A stretch of DNA of 64,000 bases from Terriglobia bacterium (GTDB taxonomy: Bacteria > Acidobacteriota > Terriglobia > 20CM-2-55-15). The position numbers and the translations under genes were made by a program. Below the pieces are notes generated by a model that had not been told where the DNA came from, made no database searches, and saw nothing but the letters and a program-made list of their open reading frames with translations. This document shows positions 1 through 59,696 of the stretch, one piece after another (position 1 is the stretch's first letter; every line of letters begins with the position of its first letter). The DNA lies in the NCBI GenBank assembly GCA_965262425.1, contig OZ253536.1, positions 4,688,115 through 4,752,114 of the forward strand. Reading direction: 5' to 3'.

Positions 1-287
1 TCGGTCGGACGCCTACACCCGGTGCCCGGAGCCCCCGCCGGAGGCCCCGTTCCCCATCGCCCACACCAGCCGACACCGCGGAGCGCAGCCGAGGGTCAAG
101 GCCGGCGCAGCCGCCGAGCTTGCGAGGGAAGCCTTGAGGCTTGGCGAGCACCGTGGTCTCCTCAAGCGGCGATGGAAGACGGTTTTACCCACAAATTCTG
201 CGGAAGACCCCAATTTTTTACAGAAGAGGCAGAGGTCGGGAACGTCGGTCTTGAACTGGAACTTGCAGCCTGTTGTGAGTGCTCATC

Positions 288-367
288 GACGCAGAGGCGC
301 AAGACGCAGAGTTTTTTTCTTCTTTTCTCCCTGAACATCTTTTCTGCGTCTTTGCGTCTCTGCGTCG
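288..367. repeat. Palindromic extragenic element, family GACGCAGAG (copy 1). It has 2 direct GACGCAGAG-type units, a 33-nt T-rich spacer, then 3 inverted CTGCGTC units.
   Basis: Read directly in the sequence. The 3' arm ctgcgtctttgcgtctctgcgtcga is identical to the 3' arm of the copy at 15454-15478. It lies immediately 3' of the minus-strand SDR gene. Confidence 0.6.
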
Positions 368-408
368 AAAAAGAGTCGTTTTGAGATCGGGCGTGGAGAC
401 CAGGTGGA

Positions 409-1137
409 TCAGATCGCCAGCCCGCCGTCCACCTGGATGACCTGTCCGGTGATGTATGAGGCTTCTTCGGAAAGGAGAAATTTCGCTATTCGGGCGACCT
501 CGTCAACCTTGCCGAACCTTCCCATCGGAATCTGATCGAGGGCTTTTTCGCGATACTCATCCCCGAGCGTCGATGTCATGTCGGTTTCGATGAGACCGAG
601 CGCGAGTGCGTTCACGGTGATGTTCGCTTTTGCCACTTCCTTGGCCAGCGCTTTCGTGAAGCCGATCATTCCTGCCTTTGAAGCGGAATAGTTGGTTTGA
701 CCCGGCATCCCTGTCAGGCCGCTGATCGATGAAACGTTCAGTATGGCGCCGGATCGCTGCCGAAGCATCGCAATGACGGTGGGTTTGGTGAAGTTGTAAA
801 CACCCTTCAGGTTCGTATCGAGAACCGCATCCCAATCCGCTTCTTTCATTCGGACGAGTAGCTTGTCCCGGGTGATACCCGCGTTATTGACCAGGATATC
901 GATCCGCTCAAAAGATGACCGGACGCTCTTGACTACCTCGGCAGCGCGCGCACTGTCGGTTGCGTCCGCCTCGAACGCGACGATCCTGTCCCCATCGGCG
1001 ATCTCTTCGGCCAGTGCGGCGTTGTGCGCGTAGGTGAAGACCACTCGTGCGCCCGCCTCCGCCAGCGCCCCGACGATTGCCCGGCCGATCCCGCGTGTTC
1101 CGCCGGTCACAATAGCTACTTTTTCTGAAAAGGGCAT
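409..1137 (-). CDS. fabG: Short-chain dehydrogenase/reductase, 3-oxoacyl-ACP reductase (FabG)-like
   Basis: Motifs TGGTRGIGRAIV (Rossmann), NNAG, and YSASK catalytic Tyr/Lys are present. The true ATG is at 1137 (MPFSEKVAIVTGG). The ORF-track start at 1188 is an upstream extension. Confidence 0.75.
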   Translation of the reverse strand: MPFSEKVAIVTGGTRGIGRAIVGALAEAGARVVFTYAHNAALAEEIADGDRIVAFEADATDSARAAEVVKSVRSSFERIDILVNNAGITRDKLLVRMKEADWDAVLDTNLKGVYNFTKPTVIAMLRQRSGAILNVSSISGLTGMPGQTNYSASKAGMIGFTKALAKEVAKANITVNALALGLIETDMTSTLGDEYREKALDQIPMGRFGKVDEVARIAKFLLSEEASYITGQVIQVDGGLAI

Positions 1138-1163
1138 AAGGGCTGGATTGTAGCAGATACGGA

Positions 1164-1592
1164 TTATCCAAGGACCCGGACGGTGCAATCGATCAATTTC
1201 TGTCGTCGGAAGGGTTTGCTCAGAACCTCGGATGCTCCCATTCGTTTGGCGAGGGCTTCAGTATCTTCGTCCCCGTATGCTGAGACGATCAGGAATTGGG
1301 TTTCGGGTTTCTGATGCTTGACCTCCGACAACAGCTCGATCCCTGTTTTTCCAGGCATTCTCAGGTCGCTGATGATGAGATCGAAGTCGATGTCCGACAC
1401 CAGTTCGAGAGCGCCTTCAGCGTCCGCCACCATGGTTACCGAGTAACCGGCCTTTTCGAGGACTCGTTGAATGGCCCTCCGCGTTATTTCGTCGCTGGGA
1501 GAGCCGACTTCCACGATCCGTTCAATGTCCGGGTCGGACATGAATTCGTCCGGTGTCATGTTGACGAGTTGATGGGCGGCCCACTGGCGCAT
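1164..1592 (-). CDS. Single-domain response regulator (CheY-like receiver, no output domain)
   Basis: REC fold signature ...LIISDLRMPGKTG... with the phospho-acceptor Asp, ...IVSAYGD..., and ...LSKPF. It is 142 aa with no DNA-binding domain. Confidence 0.7.
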   Translation of the reverse strand: MRQWAAHQLVNMTPDEFMSDPDIERIVEVGSPSDEITRRAIQRVLEKAGYSVTMVADAEGALELVSDIDFDLIISDLRMPGKTGIELLSEVKHQKPETQFLIVSAYGDEDTEALAKRMGASEVLSKPFRRQKLIDCTVRVLG

Positions 1593-2656: not shown

Positions 2657-2863
2657 AGAGTGTTAGCTTAATAGCAAAAAGCAACAGCCAGTAGCTAAAA
2701 GCCAACAGTCACATGCGATCGGTATCCATTCCTGGCGGGTCCGCAAGGATAGGTTCTCGGCGCCGTTGGCCCTGGTGAAATTCCCCTTCCCTGGCTTGAC
2801 CCGACCCGCCAAACGACCTATCCTTAACTTCAACAAGTTTAACCCCCCAAGGAGAGTCCCAAA

Positions 2864-3316
2864 TTGGATTTTGAATTCAGCAAACCATCAAGGTATCCAG
2901 AGGATCTCATCAAACCGATGAGAGATGATCTAACTCGTCTTGGCGTACGTGAAACACGGACGCCAGAGGAGGTGGACGAAGTGGTCCAGAATGCATCCGG
3001 GACGACCATGGTCGTCGTCAATTCGGTGTGTGGCTGTGCGGCGGGTAAGGCGCGACCCGGAATTGCCATGGCGTTGCAGCACAAGGTAAAGCCGGACAAT
3101 CTGATTTCTGTTTTTGCAGGTGCGGATGTAGAGGCCACAGCGCGTGCGAGGGAACACTTCGCGGGATACGCTCCGTCGTCTCCTTCGATCGCGATCATGG
3201 AGAACGGCCAGGTGGTCTACATGCTCGAACGCCACCAGATCGAGGGGCGTGAAGCGCCCGAGATCGCTTCGCTGCTCACCGCCGCGTTCGACAAACTGTG
3301 CGCGGCGCCAGTATAA
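2864..3316 (+). CDS. Bacilliredoxin-family protein (DUF1094/YphP/YqiW-like thiol-disulfide oxidoreductase with CGC motif)
   Basis: About 150 aa with ...VVVNSVCGCAAGKARP..., matching the CGC active-site context of BrxA/BrxB. TTG start with an AAGGAGAG SD 8 nt upstream. Confidence 0.55.
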   Translation: MDFEFSKPSRYPEDLIKPMRDDLTRLGVRETRTPEEVDEVVQNASGTTMVVVNSVCGCAAGKARPGIAMALQHKVKPDNLISVFAGADVEATARAREHFAGYAPSSPSIAIMENGQVVYMLERHQIEGREAPEIASLLTAAFDKLCAAPV

Positions 3317-3327
3317 GAAGGACCTTT

Positions 3328-3409
3328 ACCGCGAAGGCACGAAGGACGCGAAGCTCGGGATTTCTTCATGCAGAAGTCCAAACCTTCGTTTGCTTCGTGC
3401 CTTCGCGGT
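3328..3409. repeat. Palindromic extragenic element, family CGAAGGCACGAAG (copy 1)
   Basis: accgcgaaggcacgaaggacgcgaag ... cttcgtttgcttcgtgccttcgcggt forms a long imperfect hairpin. It sits between the convergent brx-like and actD genes. The same arm core is found at 35392-35487 and 58105-58191. Confidence 0.6.
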
Positions 3410-3444
3410 GAATTCGAGTCTGTGGGTTCAGGTGAAGTCCGGCG

Positions 3445-3951
3445 TCAAGGGATGTTCTTGACGACCCCGGGCCCGGCGTTGCCCAAGGCTTGTTCCAGGT
3501 CGCTGATCGTCTCGTCCGGTGGATTTCGAACACCGATGAGGATCTTGCCATCGGCCACTTCTTTGTCGTAAATCTCCGTTCCTTTCCGCCCCAACCTCGC
3601 GGTAACTACAAGTGTTGCCACGGTCGCCAGAACTGCCCCCAGCATCGTCAGTTCGAATAACGGAACCATGTTGGCGTAGAGCGACACGATCGGCATCCCC
3701 CCGGTGTTCAGCGGCCATGACATCTGCGTCAGGGAGGTCAGAAGATAAGCGGTGATGAGGCCGATGGCGCCCCCGACGACGGCAATCGTCGGCATCCAGG
3801 TTTCCCGATCCCTCTGGCCGAACTCGTATTCTTCCAGCGGCTCCGAGGACACGATGGCTATCTCACGCTCCGCGAAACCGGCCGCCCGGAGGGCATTCAC
3901 AGCTCGTTGGGCGGAGTCGGGGCTCACGTACAGGGAATAAATCGCCTTCAT
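3445..3951 (-). CDS. actD: ACIII subunit ActD-like (DUF3341-type small membrane subunit)
   Basis: Start MKAIYSLYV at 3951, overlapping the actC stop as ATGA. It has two predicted TM helices and sits in the position of ActD in act clusters. Confidence 0.5.
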   Translation of the reverse strand: MKAIYSLYVSPDSAQRAVNALRAAGFAEREIAIVSSEPLEEYEFGQRDRETWMPTIAVVGGAIGLITAYLLTSLTQMSWPLNTGGMPIVSLYANMVPLFELTMLGAVLATVATLVVTARLGRKGTEIYDKEVADGKILIGVRNPPDETISDLEQALGNAGPGVVKNIP

Positions 3952-5300
3952 ACCAGTTCTCCCGCTGCCTCGGATTCCGCGACAGTCTCGGCGGCTTTTA
4001 GTTCCGGGTGGGTGCCCACCCGGAGTTCCCAGATCGAGATGATCGGGATGAACTTGCAGAATAAAATGAAGAGCAGTGCGATGGCGGCGAACGTTGCCGC
4101 CATGATCGTCAACTCCGGCCACTCCGGAGTGTAGGTTCCCCAAGAATAGGGCAGTTGTTTGTAAGACAGCGACGGAATCACGATCAGGAAACGCTCCAGC
4201 CACATGCCGACGACGATACCAATCGAGGCGATGACGGTTCCGGTAATCGTCCGGAGCCTCCGAACGCCCAGTATCACGATGGGGATTACGAAGTTTAGGG
4301 CGACCATCGTCCAGAAAAACGGCGCGTACTCGCCCGTCTGCAGTGCCCCAAAAATCCCCTGCTCGTGGGACTCGTTCCCGTACCAGACCACCAGCCGCTC
4401 GTTGAAAACGAAGTACATCCAGAGCAGGCTCATCGTCGCCATTAGCTTTCCGAGGTTCTGGAAGTGAATGAGCTTCAGGTACTCTTCCAGGTGCAGCAGC
4501 CTGCGGATCAACGCCATTGCAATGATGAGGGCCGCGATCCCGCTAAAGATGGCGCCGGTCACGAAGTAGGGGCCGAAGATCGTCGAGTGCCATCCTGGCA
4601 CGACCGCCATGGAGAAATCGAAAGAGACGACCGTGTGCACCGATACCGCAATCGGAAGGATGGCGATTGCCATGATGTGCATGGCGGCTTCCAGGCGGTG
4701 CCACTGTTTGGGAGTTCCCTGCCAGCCCAGGCTCAACAGACCGTAGATCTTGCTTCGCAGTCCCGTCGTCCGGTCCCTGATGAGTGCGAAGTCGGGAATC
4801 ATCGGCAGCGCCAGAAACAGAAGACTCGCCAGCAGGTAAGTCGAGATGGCAAAGAAGTCCCACACCAACGGCGATCTGAAGTTTGGCCACAGTCCCCGCT
4901 CGCTGGGGTACGGGATCAAAAAGAAGAAAAGCCAGACGCGGCCCAGGTGGATGAGTGGGAACATCCCGCCGATCATCAGGGCAAACGCGGTGATGGCCTC
5001 GGCCGCGCGCGTAACCGGCCGCCTCCACGTTGCGTTGCACAGTCTCAGGATGGCGGAGATCAGCGTGCCGGCATGGCTGATTCCGATCCAGAAGACGAAG
5101 TTGACGAGATAGAATCCCCAGAAGACCGGCGAGTTGATGCCTGCAACACCGATTCCCGTGTAAACCTGATAAGCCCACGTGGCGAAGCCCACCAGGACGA
5201 TGGAACCGAAAAATGCGACCGCCACGTAAAACTTCGCGGACGTGTGAAGCAAAGGATGGAGGAGATCCTCGGTCAGCTTCTTATCGGTTTTCGGATTCAT
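3948..5300 (-). CDS. actC: ACIII subunit ActC (NrfD/PsrC-family polytopic membrane quinol-interacting subunit)
   Basis: 450 aa with about 10 TM helices and NrfD-like composition. It lies immediately downstream of the FeS and Mo-like subunits. Confidence 0.7.
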   Translation of the reverse strand: MNPKTDKKLTEDLLHPLLHTSAKFYVAVAFFGSIVLVGFATWAYQVYTGIGVAGINSPVFWGFYLVNFVFWIGISHAGTLISAILRLCNATWRRPVTRAAEAITAFALMIGGMFPLIHLGRVWLFFFLIPYPSERGLWPNFRSPLVWDFFAISTYLLASLLFLALPMIPDFALIRDRTTGLRSKIYGLLSLGWQGTPKQWHRLEAAMHIMAIAILPIAVSVHTVVSFDFSMAVVPGWHSTIFGPYFVTGAIFSGIAALIIAMALIRRLLHLEEYLKLIHFQNLGKLMATMSLLWMYFVFNERLVVWYGNESHEQGIFGALQTGEYAPFFWTMVALNFVIPIVILGVRRLRTITGTVIASIGIVVGMWLERFLIVIPSLSYKQLPYSWGTYTPEWPELTIMAATFAAIALLFILFCKFIPIISIWELRVGTHPELKAAETVAESEAAGELV

Positions 5301-14661: not shown

Positions 14662-14778
14662 GAGTCCGAAGTCCGAGGTCCAAGGGCGGGAATGGTTAGC
14701 ACCGCGGTTGGCCTGTAGCAATCAGCGCCCAGGCCCCGACCTCAGACTTCGGACCTAGGATTTCGGACCTCGGACTGG
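14662..14778. repeat. Long imperfect inverted repeat (gagtccgaagtccgaggtcc ... gacctcagacttcggacc / ggacctcggact) with a spacer of about 57 nt
   Basis: Seen directly. It lies between the DUF606 transporter and the DinB-like gene. It may be a terminator or a structured RNA. Confidence 0.5.
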
Positions 14779-15297: not shown

Positions 15298-15343
15298 TTT
15301 ATACGATGACAGCTGCTACGGGTTGCACACCGGAACAGTTTTT

Positions 15344-15478
15344 GACGCAGAGACGCAGAGACGCAGAGGGTACATTTGTTTAAGAAAGCCGTGTGTACTT
15401 CCCGCTGGAACTGAGCGCGAACGGTGTAGCGGATAGAGAAATGAAATATCAACTCTGCGTCTTTGCGTCTCTGCGTCG
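15344..15478. repeat. Palindromic extragenic element, family GACGCAGAG (copy 2). It has 3 GACGCAGAG units, an 83-nt spacer, then 3 CTGCGTC units.
   Basis: gacgcagagacgcagagacgcagag ... ctctgcgtctttgcgtctctgcgtcga. The 3' arm is identical to the copy at 343-367. Confidence 0.6.
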
Positions 15479-15509
15479 ATAATCCGTATCAATCTGGCAG
15501 AATATCAGG

Positions 15510-16220
15510 CTAAAAAAGCAACGTAAGGCCGACTCGCCCGGCCACCAGGATGAGCCACGGGATCAAGACCCCGATGGTCCGGGTGATCACCGACGTTCGG
15601 TTCGGGGCCACGTTCCTGTAGGCGATGATCAGGAGGATCAGCACCCAGAAAGTAATCAGATCCAGTGACTGCGCGATGGCGAAAACCGTTCGCGAAACCT
15701 CCGTTGGATCGAGGAATGCCGACGGCGCGATTCCTCCCAGTTCCTGAGGATTGATCGCGGATGACGGTATGAAGAGAACCATCATTGTTGCCGCGACGTT
15801 TCGAATCAGCAATGGCAGCATCGCGAAGGAGGTGAGCGAGAAGAATTTGCCGTATTTTGCCGAACTACCCAGGATCATGAAGATCCCGAAGTATATTCCC
15901 GACAGAACGACAATGAGCACCGTCGGTCCAACCAGGGCCCCTGCGAATCCGATGTATCGCACGGCAGGGTTGTTCAATCTCTCGACGAACTGTTCCTTCT
16001 GCTCTTCGGTCAGGTTCGCACCCTGAGGAGACTGTTCCATAGCGCGAAGCGCCATTTCCGCAGAATCGACGGTCGCCGTGATCACGCCTGCCGAGATCAG
16101 CCCGACTATCGTCAGGACAAGGATTGCCGCCCAGGGACGAACCGGGGATTCGGCAATTTCCTCGAACGCAGATCCAGGGCTCCAGAACGTCTTGAATACC
16201 AGCACGAAACCTTTCATCAT
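15510..16220 (-). CDS. Yip1-domain polytopic membrane protein (hypothetical)
   Basis: 236 aa with 5 TM helices and Yip1-like topology. It is the last gene of the ABC-efflux operon. Confidence 0.35.
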   Translation of the reverse strand: MMKGFVLVFKTFWSPGSAFEEIAESPVRPWAAILVLTIVGLISAGVITATVDSAEMALRAMEQSPQGANLTEEQKEQFVERLNNPAVRYIGFAGALVGPTVLIVVLSGIYFGIFMILGSSAKYGKFFSLTSFAMLPLLIRNVAATMMVLFIPSSAINPQELGGIAPSAFLDPTEVSRTVFAIAQSLDLITFWVLILLIIAYRNVAPNRTSVITRTIGVLIPWLILVAGRVGLTLLF

Positions 16221-21202: not shown

Positions 21203-21368
21203 CTAGGAGCCTGCGCGGCAGAAGGGATCGTAGCGAGAAAGTGGAGAATCGAGGTCAGATTTTCTCGATTTTGAGGCGAATAGTGGTTCTATTCAACGAA
21301 AAATCGGGGGAATATGACCGATTACACCGCTTTCGCAGTAGATCTCTTCTGCCGCGCAGGCTCCTAGG
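21203..21368 (+). mobile_element. MITE-like repeat family 1, copy A. About 166 bp with a perfect 22-bp TIR CTAGGAGCCTGCGCGGCAGAAG and a possible GAAGGA target-site duplication.
   Basis: Near-identical copies occur at 31470-31632, 33434-33598 and, inverted, at 50203-50368. The flanks read gaagga|CTAGGAGCC...GGCTCCTAG|gaagga. Confidence 0.7.
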
Positions 21369-31469: not shown

Positions 31470-31632
31470 CTAGGAGCCTGCGCGGCAGAAGGGATCGTAG
31501 CGAGAAAGTGGAGAATCGAGGCCAGATTTTCTCGTTTTGAGGCGAATAGTGGTTCTATTCAACGAAAAATCGGGGAAATATGGACCGATTATACCGCTTT
31601 CGCAGTAGATCTCTTCTGCCGCGCAGGCTCCT
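31470..31632 (+). mobile_element. MITE-like repeat family 1, copy B
   Basis: Same TIR and internal sequence as copy A, with a few substitutions. It lies upstream of the gamma-CA-like gene and downstream of acnA. Confidence 0.7.
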
Positions 31633-32190: not shown

Positions 32191-33437
32191 TCAAATTGGT
32201 TCGTGGTACCTACGACATCCTCCCGCCCGACATCCATATCTGGCACGCCATCGAGGCGGAAATGAGGGCTGTGTTCGAATCGTACTCGTTTAACGAGATC
32301 CGTACCCCAATCTTCGAGTCGACCGAACTGTTCGTCCGGGGAGTCGGGGAAGAAACCGATATCGTTTCGAAAGAGATGTACACGTTCAAGGACAAGGACG
32401 AGAAGACCTCTTTGACTCTCAGGCCCGAGGGAACAGCGCCAGTTGTCCGCTCCTACATTGAACACCATCTTTCTGATGAATCCAGGATGATCAAGCTCTA
32501 CTACATCGGTGCGATGTTCCGTCGGGAACGACCCCAGAGGGGCCGTTTCCGGCAGTTTTATCAGGCCGGAGTGGAGGTTCTTTCTCCCAACGACAACCCC
32601 GCCATCGAGGCGGAGGTTGTCGAAATGCTCATGCTGCTGTTCGAGCGGCTGGAAGTTTCGTCGCTGGACCTGGCTGTGAATTCGATCGGGTGCCGGGAAT
32701 GTCGGCCCTCATACATCGAGAAGCTGCGGAGCGAAATCCGCGGGCGCCGTGAAGGTTTGTGTGAGGACTGTCGCAACCGGGGTGAGAAGAATCCACTGCG
32801 TGTCTTCGACTGCAAAGTGAAATCCTGCCAGGCGCTGATAGGGGAGCTGCCGACGATTACCGACAACCTCTGTCAGGAGTGCAGGGAGCACTTCTCCGGA
32901 TTTCGCGCGTACCTGGATGAAAGAGAGATCCCGTACCGGGTGGAGCCCCGGCTCGTCCGAGGCCTGGACTATTACATGCGAACGACGTTCGAGATACTTT
33001 CTTCCAGCCTGGGGGCTCAGGACACTCTGGTGGGAGGCGGCCGCTACGATGGCCTCAGCGAAGACCTGGGCGGTCCCCCGACTAACGGGTTTGGTTTCGC
33101 GATGGGGCTTGAGCGGTTGATCCTGTCGATTCCGGAGCCCGAAAAGCTGGCGCCGGGACCCGGCCCGGCCTATTTCCTGGCGACAATGGGCGAGGACGCA
33201 TTCCGGTACGCCACGCTTCTGGCACGCAAATTGCGAAAGGCAGGCTGTTCGGTCTATCTGGATTTCGCCGGGCGCAGCCTCAAGAGCCAGATGAGATTGG
33301 CAGGGAAGCTCGGTGCAGCTCAAGTTGTCATGATAGGTGAAAACGAGATCAAGTCCGGGACCCTCATCGTTCGGGACATGAACACCCGGGAGCAAAGGGA
33401 GTTGAGCGAGTCTGAACTGATGGAGACGGGCTGCTAG
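32187..33437 (+). CDS. hisS: Histidine--tRNA ligase
   Basis: 416 aa with class II aaRS motifs and an HisRS-specific N-terminus MIKLVRGTYDILP. Confidence 0.9.
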   Translation: MIKLVRGTYDILPPDIHIWHAIEAEMRAVFESYSFNEIRTPIFESTELFVRGVGEETDIVSKEMYTFKDKDEKTSLTLRPEGTAPVVRSYIEHHLSDESRMIKLYYIGAMFRRERPQRGRFRQFYQAGVEVLSPNDNPAIEAEVVEMLMLLFERLEVSSLDLAVNSIGCRECRPSYIEKLRSEIRGRREGLCEDCRNRGEKNPLRVFDCKVKSCQALIGELPTITDNLCQECREHFSGFRAYLDEREIPYRVEPRLVRGLDYYMRTTFEILSSSLGAQDTLVGGGRYDGLSEDLGGPPTNGFGFAMGLERLILSIPEPEKLAPGPGPAYFLATMGEDAFRYATLLARKLRKAGCSVYLDFAGRSLKSQMRLAGKLGAAQVVMIGENEIKSGTLIVRDMNTREQRELSESELMETGC

Positions 33438-33598
33438 GAGTCTGCGCGGGAGAAGGGATCGTGGCGAGAAAGTGGAGAATCGAGGCCAGATTTTCTCGAT
33501 TTTGAGGCGAATAGTGGTTCTATTCAACGAAAAATCGGGGAAACATGGACCGATTATGCCGCTTTCGCAGTAGATTCCTTCTGCCGCGCAGGCTCCTA
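33434..33598 (+). mobile_element. MITE-like repeat family 1, copy C (the TIR begins inside the hisS stop codon)
   Basis: ctaggagtctgcgcgggagaag...cttctgccgcgcaggctcct. The TAG of hisS is the CTAG of the TIR. Confidence 0.7.
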
Positions 33599-35367: not shown

Positions 35368-35391
35368 TGCCTCTTCGGCGTCACGTCAGTT

Positions 35392-35487
35392 TCTTTTCAA
35401 CACGAAGACACGAAGTCACAAACGAAAGTTGAATTTCATTAAGCCTGATTCCTTCTTCGTGCCCTTCGTGCCTTCGTGTTGAAAAGA
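35392..35487. repeat. Palindromic extragenic element, family CGAAGGCACGAAG (copy 2)
   Basis: tcttttcaacacgaagacacgaag ... cttcttcgtgcccttcgtgccttcgtgttgaaaaga. It lies immediately 3' of aspS. Confidence 0.6.
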
Positions 35488-35533
35488 ATGTTCCGGTGTG
35501 AGGAGCCTTTCGGTAAACGAACGGACGTGGCTT

Positions 35534-38742: not shown

Positions 38743-38993
38743 AATGACCGTCTCCTGACCTGCATTCAGAGCACATCGCTTGCCATGGTGTGCGTCGGGG
38801 TTTTTCGTTCTCTTCGGAAGAACGCCTGACCCATCGCCGCCCCTGCCAGTACGTGTTTGGGCCGTTCAGGACGGGGCGTTTCGGCCGCCGCGTTGTGGAT
38901 GCCGACCGCATTGCCTGTGTTGGCGGAGACGCCGTTCGTCATTGTTTTGACGATCGAGACCCATCGGATGTCAGAAGGATGACGGAACGCTAA

Positions 38994-39204
38994 GGGCCCG
39001 CTCAAGAATAACGTCACATTTTGGCATCCCACCGTCGCGCCATCTTCGCGGACCGTCGCGCCATCTTCGCGGGACCGTCGCGCCATCTTCGGCCGCTCCT
39101 CAATCGCAGATGTCGGGCTATTTCTCCGGTCTGCTCAATCGGTCGCGACCGAATCTGACCGAAATCTGGGCGCCAATTCTGTGAAGTTGTTCTTGAGCGG
39201 ACCC
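38994..39204. mobile_element. MITE-like repeat family 2, copy 1. About 211 bp with an imperfect TIR GGGCCCGCTCAAGAATAACGTCACATTTTGGC / GCCAATTCTGTGAAGTTGTTCTTGAGCGGACCC, and it contains a 3x tandem 21-nt repeat.
   Basis: A second copy is at 57465-57633, with identical internal blocks (caatcgcagatg.cgggctatt.ctccggtctgctcaatcggtcgc.accgaatctgaccgaaatctgggcgccaattctgtgaagtt). Its gtcgcgccatcttcgcgg(g)acc unit is repeated 3x. Copy 2 carries only one related, degenerate unit, cccatcttcacgccaccttcggccgctcc. Confidence 0.65.
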
Positions 39205-39283
39205 TGGATGGAGCGGAAATGGCGTGCCTCGAGACTCCGGGCCCCGATTTGACACTGCCGACCCGTGGTCCTACCCTTGAACG

Positions 39284-50187: not shown

Positions 50188-50202
50188 TGGCTAAAAACCG
50201 TG

Positions 50203-50368
50203 CTAGGAGCCTGCGCGGCAGAAGAGATCTACTGCGAAAGCGGTATAATCGGTCCAGATTTCCCCGATTTTTCGTTAAATAGAACCACTATTCGCCTCAA
50301 AATCGAGAAAATCTGTCCTCGATTCTCCACTTTCTCGCTACGATCCCTTCTGCCGCGCAGGCTCCTAG
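50203..50368 (-). mobile_element. MITE-like repeat family 1, copy D (inverted relative to copies A-C)
   Basis: Both termini are the perfect TIR (ctaggagcctgcgcggcagaag ... cttctgccgcgcaggctcctag). Its internal sequence is the reverse complement of copies A-C. Confidence 0.7.
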
Positions 50369-50455
50369 CCGATCCTCATTTTCTTAAAGTTGGCTGTTCC
50401 AGGAGAAAATTTTGACTGAGGCATGGTGTTCATGACCGCCCAGCCGGCTTCGTAA

Positions 50456-50537
50456 TGCGAAAGGAGGGACTCGAACCCTCATGGGTTGCCCCACTGGATC
50501 CTAAGTCCAGCGCGTCTGCCAATTCCGCCACTTTCGC
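50456..50537 (-). tRNA. tRNA-Leu (anticodon UAG), type II with a long variable arm, no encoded CCA
   Basis: Minus-strand read GCGAAAGTGGCGGAATTGGCAGACGCG CTGGA-CTTAGGA-TCCAG TGGGGCAACCCATGA GGGTTCGAGTCCC...CTTTCGCA. The acceptor stem is 7 bp, the anticodon loop is C-U-UAG-G-A, and it has the T-loop GTTCGAGTC. Confidence 0.8.
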
Positions 50538-50852
50538 GCACCTGTAAAGTCAATCACTTGCGGAATCCTACCACTTTCTCGTTTGCCGTCGATGTGGAAA
50601 TTTGTGGGACTCCGATCCGAACTCTGGCAGTTTCTCGACGGACTGCCGTTTCTAATCCATCGACGGGTGAGTATACCGCATCGTCGTCTTGGGGGTTTCG
50701 GTCCCATAACGTCCGAGTGGAGCAGGCGTTCGTGGAGAAGCAGATTCTCCTGATTCGGGGACGGAGGCATAATTATCCCAACTGTTCCTGACATATAAAG
50801 GTTGCGGGAGTTGTCCCTCCGTCCCCGAATTAGGAGCCCGATCTTTGCCCTC

Positions 50853-57409: not shown

Positions 57410-57464
57410 GAGCCGCCTATTATTGCACAGCCTCCCAGGCGTTGCCGCCAGGGTTTCCGGGTAA

Positions 57465-57633
57465 GGGCCCACTCAAGAATAACTTCACATTTTGGCATCC
57501 CATCTTCACGCCACCTTCGGCCGCTCCTCAATCGCAGATGCCGGGCTATTCCTCCGGTCTGCTCAATCGGTCGCAACCGAATCTGACCGAAATCTGGGCG
57601 CCAATTCTGTGAAGTTATTCTTGAGTGGACCCT
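57465..57633. mobile_element. MITE-like repeat family 2, copy 2 (about 169 bp)
   Basis: gggcccactcaagaataacttcacattttggc ... gccaattctgtgaagttattcttgagtggaccc. Its internal block is shared with the copy at 38994-39204. Confidence 0.65.
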
Positions 57634-57709: not shown

Positions 57710-58081
57710 ATGAAGACGGCACCGTCGAAAGTTCGGCGCGCACTCTATCAGTTGCGACGCGAAATGCTGGATTACCTCCATCGTGGCGAGGCCGACACCG
57801 ACTTCTGCGGCCAGTGCCACCTCCCCCATCCTTCCGGCGATTATGAATCCTACGAATTTTGTCCCTGGTGCTGTCAGTCCGTAAACGGATGGGAGCCGAG
57901 GTCGGACGAGTCACGCCGGATCATTGAGCACCACTGGGTGACAACCGACGAGATCCAGTGTGGGGAGTGTGGTGGGGAATACGAGCAACCATCACGATAT
58001 CCATTTCAGTTCTGCCCGCATTGCGGCGCACCGTTTGCGGACCAGGATGAATTGATGATTGAGCTGCCCTTCCTGATTTAA
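57710..58081 (+). CDS. Hypothetical cytoplasmic Cys-rich protein with two zinc-ribbon-like CxxC pairs
   Basis: CGQC...CPWCC and CGEC...CPHC. No signal peptide. It is flanked by repeat family 2 (5') and palindromic family 3 (3'). Confidence 0.4.
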   Translation: MKTAPSKVRRALYQLRREMLDYLHRGEADTDFCGQCHLPHPSGDYESYEFCPWCCQSVNGWEPRSDESRRIIEHHWVTTDEIQCGECGGEYEQPSRYPFQFCPHCGAPFADQDELMIELPFLI

Positions 58082-58104: not shown

Positions 58105-58191
58105 TCTTCAACACGAAGACACGAAGAACACGAAGAAGCAAAAAATAGAAACTTCGCGTGTTTTCGTGACCTTCGTGCCTTCGTGTTGAAA
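58105..58191. repeat. Palindromic extragenic element, family CGAAGGCACGAAG (copy 3)
   Basis: tcttcaacacgaagacacgaagaacacgaagaag ... cttcgcgtgttttcgtgaccttcgtgccttcgtgttgaaa. Confidence 0.6.
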
Positions 58192-58218: not shown

Positions 58219-58600
58219 CTATTCGTGCCGCAGCGCAATCATCGGGTCCACCCGCGCGGCTCTCCGTGCGGGAACGTAGCAGGCCAGCAGAGCCGAGGTG
58301 ACCAGCAGGGCGGTTGTTGCCGCAAGCACGTTCGGATCCAGCGCGGATGTCCCGTAGAGAAGAGAACCGACGAGGCGTCCCAGCGCGACCGAAGCTGCCA
58401 GCCCCAGGCCGATTCCCATCCCGGTCAGTGTGACTCCTTCTCCCACGACCATCTTCAGGATGTCACGCCTTGCGGCGCCTAACGCCATGTGGATTCCGAT
58501 TTCCCGCTGGCGCTGGCCGACGAAGAACGAAATCACACCGTAGATGCCCATCATTGCCAGGAGCAGGGCTGCAATACCCAGGCCTCCGAACGCCGCCGCG
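58219..58600 (-). pseudogene. C-terminal fragment (about 125 aa, TM2-TM4 of the last FtsX module) of an FtsX/ADOP-type permease
   Basis: ...FGGLGIAALLLAMMGIYGVISFFVGQRQREIGIHMALGA...LLACYVPARRAARVDPMIALRHE*. Upstream of aa 123 the ORF-track reading is unrelated sequence antisense to nrfA. Confidence 0.6.
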
Positions 58601-58616
58601 GACGCCGACTGACGCG

Positions 58617-59696
58617 GACCCGCGTTCGGTTGTCGCCCGGCAGAAGCTGGACGAAGATCCGCGACTTCGAACGATGTGGGCCGGTTACGCCTTTTCAGTC
58701 GACTTCCGGGAAGAACGGGGCCATGCCTACATGCTTCTGGATCAGACCCTGACCGAGAGACAGGCCGTGGCCCAGCAACCGGGCACCTGTATGCAGTGTC
58801 ACGCTTCGTTGTACGTGCCCTACCGAAAACTTGGTGATGGGGACCTCGTTCTTGGTTTCGAGCGGATGAACCAGATGTCGTATCAGGAAGCTCGGGAACT
58901 TGTGTCGCACCCCGTCTCCTGCATCGATTGCCATGATCCGGGAACCCTGCAGCTGCGCGTGACAAGGCCGGCGTTCATGGAGGGCATGGCGGCGCTGAAG
59001 GCCGCTGACGGCGTGGTCGACTATGACGTGAACGCCGACGCGACTCGGCAGGAGATGCGGAGCTATGTCTGCGGGCAGTGCCACGTCGAGTACTACTTCA
59101 AAGGCGAGGAAAAACGTCTCGTGTATCCCTGGGCGAACGGCTTGAAGGTCGAAAACATCATGGCGTACTACGATGAAACAGGTTTCAAAGACTGGACCCA
59201 TGAAGAGTCCGGAGCGCCGGTCCTCAAGGCCCAACATCCGGAATTTGAAATGTGGAATCAGGGGATCCACGCACGGTCCGGGGTCGCCTGTGCGGATTGC
59301 CACATGCCCTACATGCGTGAGGGTGCGATGAAGATCAGCGATCACCATGTTCGCAGTCCCGTGTTGAACATCAATCGTGCCTGCCAGACATGTCACAAGT
59401 GGCCCGAGGCGGAGCTTCTGGACCGTGTCGAGACAATCCAGACCCGTCTGTCCGGTGCGCGCGATCTCGCCATGAATGCATTGATGGACTTGATTGAAGA
59501 CATCCGTGCTGCGGGGGCGGAAGGCGCGTCCGATGCCGATCTGGTCCCAGCCCGGGATTTCCAGAGGCGGGCACAGTTCTATCTGGACTTTGTCGAAGCG
59601 GAAAACTCAACCGGGTTTCACGCGCCTCAGGAGGCAACCCGGATTCTCCTGGAGTCGATAGACTTCTCCCGAAAGGGCCAAATGTCCCTGAGATAA
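58617..59696 (+). pseudogene. nrfA: Pentaheme cytochrome c nitrite reductase NrfA homologue, 5'-truncated (no signal peptide; no nrfH)
   Basis: Five CxxCH motifs (CMQCH, CIDCH, CGQCH, CADCH, CQTCH) and NrfA motifs (DPRLRTMWAGYAF, VCGQCHVEYYF, EMWNQGIHARSGVACADCHMPY). The longest in-frame N-terminus (from 58470) has no hydrophobic signal. Confidence 0.7.

Follow-up and report, generated by a model that had tools for sequence, protein, structure and literature searches.

We analysed a 64,000-nucleotide (nt) stretch of the genome of a Bryobacterales-like Terriglobia bacterium (contig OZ253536.1, positions 4,688,115 to 4,752,114; this whole stretch, with a G+C content of ~58%, is called the window below) and found that five of its intergenic hairpins (H1, H2, H4, H5 and H6 in Table 1) very probably belong to a superfamily of palindromic repeats whose arms, built from tandem octamers, also bracket genes for GxxExxY proteins, a family (PF13366/TIGR04256) of predicted small nucleases. 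We lean towards reading these five hairpins as solo copies of one palindromic element that bears the nuclease gene when full-length, and that resembles the pairing of REPINs (hairpins formed by repetitive extragenic palindromes, REPs) with RAYTs (REP-associated tyrosine transposases).

One consensus for the hairpins of the window

Hairpins were called from an inverted-repeat scan combined with folding of both strands against dinucleotide shuffles (200 each). This recovered all five elements that had been proposed in a sequence-only reading of the window, as well as a sixth of like architecture, H3, which that reading had overlooked. The five rank among the longest inverted repeats of the window and, in agreement with the stable folding expected of them, each forms a single long hairpin on each strand (-38 to -74 kcal/mol, z -5.6 to -10.2, 0 of 200 shuffles equally stable), with the fold of H3 being less decisive than those of the other five. 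Their description as dispersed, intergenic, REP-like palindromic repeats was likewise borne out, as all six hairpins are intergenic and lie among unrelated housekeeping genes, with loops of 28-92 nt.

The arms of five of the six hairpins follow one architecture, namely two to four tandem CRCNNAG units, each followed by 1-2 spacer bases, so that the period is 8-9 nt (unit spacings are distributed as 8 > 9 >> 10-11), and an outer cap that reads TTCA(C/A)C…G(G/T)TGAA or TCGAC…GTCGA. The units had previously been given as 7-9 nt long; this is corrected here to the period of a 7-nt core plus spacer. Matches to the pattern CRCNNAGNCRCNNAG numbered 12 in the window against 0.62 expected (19-fold over chance), 11 of them inside the five hairpins, and a generic scan for a tandem unit facing an inverted tandem unit returned 7 clusters, versus 1.2 +/- 1.0 in shuffles. 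The sequence-only reading had divided the five hairpins between two families, Family 3 and Family 4, and had reported a 25-nt 3' arm, CTGCGTCTTTGCGTCTCTGCGTCGA, that is the same in both Family-4 copies. The shared arm was confirmed, but the division was not: both families match the one consensus, and at the site orthologous to H2 in a related Solibacteraceae metagenome-assembled genome (MAG; locus L035, fetched loci being given L numbers) CGCGAAG stands in place of the CACGAAG of the window in both arms. Because the unit type switches at this one orthologous site, we interpret the differences between Families 3 and 4 as drift inside a single consensus.

Table 1. Hairpins of the window, with arm positions from the inverted-repeat scan (repeat identifiers in brackets), folding energies and neighbouring genes
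Hairpin	Coordinates	Strand	Kind and earlier assignment	Basis	Arm coordinates	Arms and loop	Cap	Folding	Neighbouring genes
H1	286..368	none	solo hairpin; Family 4	inverted-repeat scan, folding, CRCNNAG pattern match	286-302/352-368 (I16)	5' TCGACGCAGAGGCGCAAGACGCAGAG, 3' CTGCGTCTTTGCGTCTCTGCGTCGA; T-rich loop	TCGAC/GTCGA	-47.5 kcal/mol (+ strand), z -8.0	3' of short-chain dehydrogenase/reductase (SDR) gene 409-1188 (-) (Pfam)
H2	3325..3412	none	solo hairpin; Family 3, variant	inverted-repeat scan, folding	3325-3368/3369-3412 (I2)	units CGCGAAG/CACGAAG/CGCGAAG	TTTACC/GGTGAA	-57.5 kcal/mol, z -10.2	convergent Disulph_isomer (2864-3316 +) and ActD (3445-4203 -) (Pfam)
H3	14663..14777	none	absent from earlier reading	inverted-repeat scan (I20), generic tandem-unit scan, folding		GTCCGARG units, AGTCCGAAGTCCGAGGTCCAAGG … GACCTCAGACTTCGGACCTAGGATTTCGGACCTCGGACT		-57.9 kcal/mol, z -3.3	co-directional YdcZ and DinB_2
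H4	15339..15482	none	solo hairpin; Family 4	inverted-repeat scan, folding	15339-15377/15444-15482 (I3)	5' TTTTTGACGCAGAGACGCAGAGACGCAGAG, 3' CTCTGCGTCTTTGCGTCTCTGCGTCGA; loop about 84 nt	TTGAC/GTCGA	-73.6 kcal/mol, z -9.5	convergent DinB_2 and Yip1
H5	35391..35488	none	solo hairpin; Family 3	inverted-repeat scan, folding	35391-35415/35464-35488 (I8), 96% complementary	TTCTTTTCAACACGAAGACACGAAG … CTTCGTGCCCTTCGTGCCTTCGTGTTGAAAAGAA	TTCAAC/GTTGAA	-40.7 kcal/mol (+ strand), -49.1 kcal/mol (- strand)	co-directional aspS and mutL (aspS-mutL spacer)
H6	58107..58190	none	solo hairpin; Family 3	inverted-repeat scan, folding	58107-58134/58163-58190 (I7)	TTCAACACGAAGACACGAAGAACACGAAG … TTTTCGTGACCTTCGTGCCTTCGTGTTGAA	TTCAAC/GTTGAA		convergent zinc-ribbon (57710-58081 +) and FtsX-like (58219-58965 -)

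Arms of the same consensus bracket GxxExxY genes

A 136-amino-acid (aa) open reading frame (ORF) lying within a CACGAAG hairpin at L066 proved to be GxxExxY (TIGR04256 E 1e-42; PF13366 PDDEXK_3 E 3e-41), and each of the three GxxExxY genes present in the genome loci fetched (~0.8 Mb) adjoins such arms. In metagenomes, 584 of 600 candidate stretches were confirmed by scanning with an alignment of GxxExxY, 80 loci being kept, and genes flanked by 200 nt or more on each side were scored as bracketed when their flanks shared at least 5 inverted 8-mers. Bracketing was seen for 42 of 66 metagenomic GxxExxY genes versus 5 of 88 shifted pseudo-gene controls in the same loci, and 43 of 66 strict CRCNNAG arm pairs enclosed a loop of 350-600 nt, which is one gene length.

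Drawn without ascertainment bias from 48 gene-bracketing pairs, the arm consensus reads TTTCACC-RC-NN-AG-R-CRC-NN-AG. Both arm types of the window recur around the gene, the Family-4 type in L133, L120 and L209 and the Family-3 type in L129 and L122, for example as TTTTTTCGACGCAGAGACGCAGAG before and GCGTCTCTGCGTCGAAA after the gene in L133, as TTTTGACGCGGAGACGCGGAG in L209 and as CACCACGAAGACACGAAGACACGAAG in L129; TCGAC-CGCAGAG arms such as those of H1 also flank GxxExxY genes in L133 and L120. Gene-carrying forms comprise L066, L069 and L117-L196, and apart from GxxExxY the long-loop arm pairs in the genome loci held no convincing cargo. A separate CACGAAG-type arm pair at L066:4308-6549 surrounds two ORFs, one of them for an IS256-like transposase of 432 aa, and is possibly an insertion sequence (IS) that inserted into a hairpin.

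The GxxExxY product is ~125 aa long and belongs to a highly diverse family, with at least 7,998 matches at E <= 1e-10 among 8,000 candidates scored. An alignment of 64 sequences has G26, G28, L29, L30, E31, D71, E81 and Q95 invariant and Y34, K83 and Y99 near-invariant (>=90%), and an AlphaFold2 model is confident (mean predicted local distance difference test score, pLDDT, 91.5). From this conservation and this model, GxxExxY is predicted to be a minimal PD-(D/E)XK nuclease whose D…E-x-K site is intact, and Pfam, NCBIfam and a fold search all assign it to that fold, so that we describe it as a modelled Cas4-like PD-(D/E)XK nuclease. The fold search was required since a search against solved structures by sequence gave no match; among defence-system and phage-family resources, PADLOC returned only a marginal Cas4 match and PHROGs none. 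In a survey of 2012, PF13366 is listed among families of unknown function, with "multiple transfers" noted between divisions.

Spread across lineages

The exact Family-3 20-mer TTCAACACGAAGRCACGAAG was present in more than 112 stretches in a scan of GTDB species-representative genomes, covering no fewer than 15 named lineages of bacteria as well as one Thermoplasmata archaeon. Broadly, the hosts were Acidobacteriota, Gemmatimonadota, Planctomycetota, Bacteroidota, Ignavibacteriota, Chlamydiota, Alpha- and Gammaproteobacteria, Chloroflexota, Armatimonadota, Verrucomicrobia, Negativicutes and a Deltaproteobacteria-labelled MAG (in finer terms Terriglobia, Solibacteraceae, Pyrinomonadaceae, Thermoanaerobaculia, Gemmatimonadales, several Planctomycetota, Bacteroidales, Maribellus, Chitinophagales, Ignavibacteriota, Parachlamydiales, Acetobacteraceae, Rhodospirillaceae, Hyphomonadaceae, Methylobacter, Roseiflexaceae, Anaerolineales, Chthonomonadales, Verrucomicrobia and Negativicutes). 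Most matches were plus/minus pairs 40-130 nt apart that form hairpins with two to four units per arm, and their loops, mostly 4-150 nt, are unrelated from copy to copy.

The 20-mer represents a single variant of a consensus that is constrained and occurs in a great many copies, so that finding it again in several phyla does not of itself call for recent transfer, and the thing to explain is the conserved consensus rather than the recurrence of one 20-mer. Phages are unlikely carriers, given that the 20-mer had zero matches in 2.9 million viral contigs and that only one viral relative of GxxExxY was found.

Concerted evolution of the arms

The two arms of an element track each other closely. 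Across the 48 gene-bracketing pairs, arm complementarity was 0.78, compared with 0.54 when 3' arms were permuted among elements (0 of 500 permutations reached 0.78), and at the free positions R2, N4 and N5 it was 0.92, 0.73 and 0.94 against 0.51, 0.40 and 0.57 in permuted pairs. Within an arm, 44% of adjacent units agreed at all three variable positions, versus 11% of random pairs. Genomes of Bryobacteraceae differ at one orthologous site, where they carry CGCGGAG, CGCAGAG or CGCCGAG as the unit and TCGAC, CCCC or TCACC as the cap, with the same variant prevailing in both arms and most units of most genomes (L142 is mixed), a concerted change that requires homogenisation from unit to unit and from arm to arm, beyond point mutation and selection for pairing.

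Mismatches on the sense strand of the gene were of the G·U type 60 times and of the A·C type 56 times, and this equal frequency points to a palindrome maintained at the DNA level rather than to a sense-strand RNA structure.

Orthologous sites, turnover and nesting

The related Solibacteraceae MAG, whose flanks are ~82-84% identical to the window, has hairpins at the sites of both H6 and H2. Its H6 orthologue (L038) keeps the outer units, has a diverged loop and carries four units in the 5' arm versus three in the window, a whole-unit change of the kind predicted in the sequence-only reading, which had proposed that the stems can extend by slippage; a further such change is described below for H4. 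The same MAG has an extra hairpin where window positions 2657-2800 do not fold (z -0.4). H5 was found identical in four further assemblies.

Gene-carrying and gene-less states could be compared at the spacer between moxR and DUF58, which is filled with a GxxExxY element in at least 10 loci (L120, L133, L142, L135, L182, L204, L206-L208 and L209) and gene-less in four (L198, L199, L200 and L203) that represent three distinct spacers, with L198 and L199 alike. DUF58 proteins are 77-97% identical across this group, and 96.3% identical between the filled L209 and the empty L198. As L198 keeps a decayed 5' arm and the leader sequence of the element, we interpret it as the internal-deletion remnant of an L209-type element. 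Identity among the GxxExxY proteins of this site is 64-92%, below that of the flanking proteins, and their divergence would fit long vertical residence with fast evolution. In Bryobacteraceae (L120:1362-2030; L133, L142, L204, L206 and L209) the element sits within the moxR-DUF58-batA operon, where its ORF crosses the inner and outer arms and overlaps the DUF58 start codon (TGATG/TAATG), and the resulting gene calls are 180-200 aa long with repeat-encoded extensions such as SKPESAEEAE.

Elements are also nested and entered by other mobile DNA. The moxR-DUF58 elements contain an inner arm pair inside an outer pair, and elsewhere CACGAAG hairpins lie within the loops of CGCAAAG-type hairpins. 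In a Maribellus MAG (L009, L037, L064, L082 and L102) the CACGAAG hairpin forms the centre of a recently amplified miniature inverted-repeat transposable element (MITE) of ~200 bp, with outer ends TGAGYCCACTCCGAAAAG…CTTTTCGGAGTRGRYTCA, 4-bp target-site duplications (ATTT, AAAT, CAAT) and loops conserved between copies; some Terriglobia copies have an outer layer CCGAAAC…GTTTCGG. H4 is an insertion and rearrangement hotspot between near-identical strains: among strains of the source species, compared over the region equivalent to window 15298-15900, L210:1155-1490 has a 335-bp MITE in the H4 loop with an 8-bp target-site duplication ATTTGTTT, L213:~1335-1650 has a 24-nt duplication of the H4 cap, or terminus, and two units, with the MITE of L210 downstream, and L214:~1130-1671 has a group II intron (RVT_1 and GIIM) inside the H4 arm.

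Positions 1-210 of the window lie inside a MITE of ~335 bp whose terminal repeats are GGGTCTTCCGCAGAATTTGTGGG…CCCACAAATTCTGCGG and which matches the copy in the H4 loop of L210 at 99.5% identity, and the MITE end at 210 is 76 nt from H1. In the Solibacteraceae MAG SRP308112_co1_433 (L010, L035, L048 and L051), the 3' arm is broken at one position in four hairpins (…GTGTCTTCGT up to the break, ATCTGGACTCCTCTGTCAAGTAGGCACAACTC after it) and the contig ends shortly past the break, which looks like an insertion sequence targeting the arm.

A proposed palindromic element and the points against it

In the element that we favour for the five hairpins, the loop of the full-length form would hold the GxxExxY gene, and the window hairpins would be its solo forms, as the window itself has no such gene. 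It would work much as REPIN/RAYT systems do, with solos far more numerous than gene-carrying copies, persisting vertically and turning over structurally, and its arms would stay complementary and its units alike through repeated slippage and arm-to-arm correction. The nuclease may recognise C1, C3, A6 and G7 of the octamers, or the hairpin or cruciform that they form; such recognition would drive the maintenance or spread of the elements, possibly by insertion at the apex of existing hairpins. Nesting, arm-to-arm correction and homogenisation of units would all follow from an enzyme that reads the octamers, or their hairpin or cruciform, and inserts or regenerates elements at apices. We put forward this nuclease-driven mechanism tentatively, at somewhat short of even chances. 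The broader proposal is that GxxExxY is the catalytic partner of palindromic DNA that is mobile or maintains itself and that forms a pan-bacterial class not recognised before, a REPIN/RAYT analogue with PD-(D/E)XK chemistry; we regard this as less likely than not.

Several observations weigh against this interpretation. About a third of GxxExxY genes have no detectable arms, and the window itself lacks the gene. No coding remnants were found in solo-hairpin loops by tblastn with 80 GxxExxY proteins, so that solos are no more than putative descendants of gene-carrying copies, and the reverse route, in which the gene homes into pre-existing hairpins, is equally possible. The sole clear case of gene loss (L198) left decayed arms and no clean solo hairpin. 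Terriglobia and window copies have no target-site duplication and no fixed outer boundary, and no matching IS was found. Nucleases 70-88% identical bear different NN unit variants, which excludes a simple protein-to-unit code and implies that a nuclease reading the arms must ignore the NN positions. Arm polarity is not absolute, with the purine-rich arm first in 110 pairs and reversed in 25, and the genome-contig sample, being ascertained by the exact 20-mer, is biased towards the CACGAAG type.

Alternative explanations

The sequence-only reading had regarded the hairpins as terminator-insulator elements placed directly 3' of a gene or between convergent genes. In its general form, this would make them host-serving RNA terminators, insulators or 3'-end stabilisers like REPs and bacterial interspersed mosaic elements (BIMEs), with tandem units that only let stem length vary, and we consider it unlikely. 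The intergenic position of 6/6 hairpins, with 4/6 at convergent gene ends, their very stable folds, and the retention of two at orthologous sites with arms better conserved than loops would all suit such a role, yet no T-run follows the stem in any of the six on either strand (tails read from sequence), and intrinsic terminators were set aside on this basis. A terminator consensus scan also found none at the hairpin sites, although its 3-8-nt loop limit would miss them. In Family-3 copies the T-run usually lies 5' and the A-run 3', opposite to the order in a terminator, and this arrangement merely lengthens the stem. Placement is not uniform either, since the hairpin at 35392 (H5) lies upstream of mutL and H3 lies between co-directional genes; in a wider sample of 70 solo hairpins, 30 were co-directional, 24 convergent and 16 divergent, and while convergent sites are slightly over-represented (24 against 17.5 expected), neither the deviation from 50/25/25 nor a 3'-end bias was significant on these crude ORF calls. 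The + strand of H5, which is the transcribed one, folds worse than the antisense strand (Table 1), G·U and A·C mismatches are tolerated alike in gene-carrying copies, and a host role leaves the bracketing of a nuclease gene across phyla unexplained.

A second RNA-level explanation is that the elements are processing signals of the type of 23S rRNA intervening sequences, whose stem is a substrate of RNase III, such that the insert is excised from transcripts and the solos are the ORF-less form. Insertions at moxR-DUF58 lie inside an operon without separating its genes, with the element frame overlapping a start codon as described above; stems are 20-30 bp and nearly perfect; and hairpins nested in hairpin loops resemble intervening sequences in the loops of rRNA helices. 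We nonetheless judge this distinctly unlikely, because selection for RNA pairing should give an excess of G·U over A·C mismatches that is not seen, because solos also sit between convergent genes and in the promoter regions of divergent ones, places for which one defined transcript would not be expected, and because Rfam gave the related hairpins only sub-threshold microRNA-precursor matches, which are generic to long hairpins.

Ordinary MITEs moved by a classical transposase, with the hairpin as internal cargo and the GxxExxY association secondary, would account for the Maribellus repeat, its TGAGYCCACTCCGAAAAG outer ends, 4-bp duplications and conserved loops, and perhaps for the CCGAAAC…GTTTCGG layer of some Terriglobia copies. 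Most lineages, however, have unrelated loops and flanks and neither target-site duplications nor a fixed outer end, and conservation across phyla sits in the arms, not in outer terminal repeats. The specific bracketing of GxxExxY (42/66 vs 5/88) also stands against it, there is no consistently nearby transposase, and IS256-like and other IS are inserted into hairpins and not bounded by them, all of which makes this explanation highly unlikely.

Scarcely credible, finally, is that the hairpins are independent products of local slippage at arbitrary palindromes without common origin or recognition, which the variety of unrelated-unit hairpins in the same genomes (AGTCTGA, GTCGCGA, AGCCTTA, CTCCGGAA, TGCTGAA), the unit homogenisation within elements and an H3 unit seen nowhere else might suggest, but which is largely refuted for the five CRCNNAG hairpins by the C1, C3, A6, G7, cap and polarity common to phyla and to 48 independent gene-bracketing pairs, by the exact 20-mer in >112 stretches and by the 19-fold excess of the pattern in the window, a refutation that does not cover H3 and other unit types.

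Relation to known elements

Classical foldback elements are eukaryotic. Foldback transposons and MITEs share with the hairpins terminal inverted repeats made of tandem repeats, little or no coding capacity and folding of the whole into a hairpin, and the Maribellus element lies inside a MITE with a 4-bp target-site duplication; they differ in that most copies here lack target-site duplications and a transposase and have unconserved loops. Some 23S rRNA intervening sequences carry a small ORF (S23p, or four-helix-bundle, family), and they too consist of a long hairpin that can surround a small selfish ORF and have ORF-less versions, and they insert at helix apices, as the elements here may do, whereas no examined copy here is in rRNA, the ORF family differs and the mismatches argue against selection at the RNA level. 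Intrinsic terminators are likewise stable G+C-containing stem-loops downstream of genes, but the hairpins are far larger, with 25-30-bp stems and 20-90-nt loops, and have no 3' U-tract. Integron attC sites, which have RYYYAAC…GTTRRRY cores and stand in cassette arrays beside intI, were rejected, as only the TTCAAC/GTTGAA variant resembles their cores, the general cap being TTCACC/GGTGAA, and as copies are single and scattered between housekeeping genes; the hairpins are not repeats of the CRISPR type, and in the window Rfam gave nothing at gathering score except the tRNA gene described below.

The closest likeness is to REP/REPIN-RAYT systems (PMC3116915, PMC3733652), which also comprise short intergenic palindromes in many copies per genome and a single small nuclease gene bracketed by inverted repeat copies and far outnumbered by solos, with long vertical inheritance, families that differ between lineages and other mobile elements that target both. 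A REP is defined as a 20-40-nt imperfect palindrome with an unpaired GTAG/CGTC tag at one end (PMC3733652). The elements here are not canonical REPs or BIMEs, being 80-140 nt long with two to four tandem octamers per arm in place of one 20-40-nt stem, and having no unpaired GTAG or CGTC tag (the GACG/CGTC of Family 4 is paired within the stem). The flanked gene encodes a PD-(D/E)XK (Cas4-like) nuclease by prediction and not a RAYT, which is an IS200/IS605-like HUH/Y1 tyrosine transposase, so that an association of REPs with RAYT genes was set aside too; one consensus here spans >=15 bacterial lineages and one archaeal genome, whereas REPs are lineage-specific; and GxxExxY genes are very numerous and diverse, not one per REP family. 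Tandem heptamer repeats are known as the short tandemly repeated repetitive (STRR) sequences of cyanobacteria and as TAACTGA in Beggiatoaceae, Cyanobacteria and Bacteroidetes (MacGregor 2015, PMC4679880). These are similarly intergenic 7-8-nt tandem repeats of distant phyla with no known transfer mechanism, but they are direct repeats, often just upstream of start codons, with only one inverted set reported and no bracketing of nuclease genes described.

Novelty and implications

No description of the pairing of these repeats with GxxExxY was found in the accessible literature on the repeats, PF13366/TIGR04256, STRR and REPIN/RAYT, closed-access papers being outside reach. We rate the system as of a known kind, interspersed palindromes tied to a selfish nuclease, with the pairing with GxxExxY as a new variant and not as categorically new. 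If true, it would provide the first biological context for PF13366/TIGR04256, which is among the larger nuclease families of "unknown function", and would account for a class of intergenic hairpins that Acidobacteriota, Gemmatimonadota and Planctomycetota have in abundance, as do many other lineages of soil and fresh water. It would also be a second, mechanistically different case of the long-term relationship between genome and replicator seen in REPIN/RAYT, and would supply a Cas4-like nuclease, specific for a sequence or a structure, together with a defined candidate substrate. In practical terms, the hairpins act as hotspots where insertion sequences, MITEs and group II introns enter, and they likely cause assembly breaks and spurious N- or C-terminal extensions of gene calls.

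Other hairpins and repeats

H3 has the architecture of the other five hairpins, and its GTCCGARG units do not match the C-R-C prefix; no relatives were found in any fetched locus. It may also be a member of the widespread palindromic element, or it may be part of a wider set of hairpins with unrelated units. Such tandem-unit hairpins are numerous in the same genomes (L024, L025, L036, L041, L070, L078, L083, L093, L095, L101, L105 and L111), with units AGTCTGA, GTCGCGA, AGCCTTA, ACGCGGATGA, AGCGGTCGnnn, CTCCGGAA, TGCTGAA and TTACGCAGA, and the tandem-unit hairpin architecture is more general than the CRCNNAG superfamily. At L046:4684-7769 (Parachlamydiaceae) the arms are reversed, CTTTGTG… preceding …CACAAAG at a distance of 46-61 nt between successive genes, such that each gene is bracketed by F…R arms, and one of the bracketed genes encodes a RING-like zinc-finger protein.

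The window also holds four copies of a MITE-like repeat of ~165 bp (21203-21367, 31472-31632, 33435-33598 and 50202-50369), with 25-28-nt terminal inverted repeats CTAGGAGCCTGCGCGGCAGAAGGGATC (I5, I6, I9 and I11), which are presumably the MITEs mentioned in the sequence-only reading. A second inverted-repeat family, with ends AGGGCCCRCTCAAGAATAAC…GTTATTCTTGAGYGGRCCCT, occurs at 57464-57633 and 38993-39205 (I1 and I10). The tRNA gene lies at 50456-50537 (-) (Rfam 60.5 bits), and ~200 nt from it, beside a copy of the ~165-bp repeat, is a 36-nt inverted repeat with 81% complementarity at 50747-50836.

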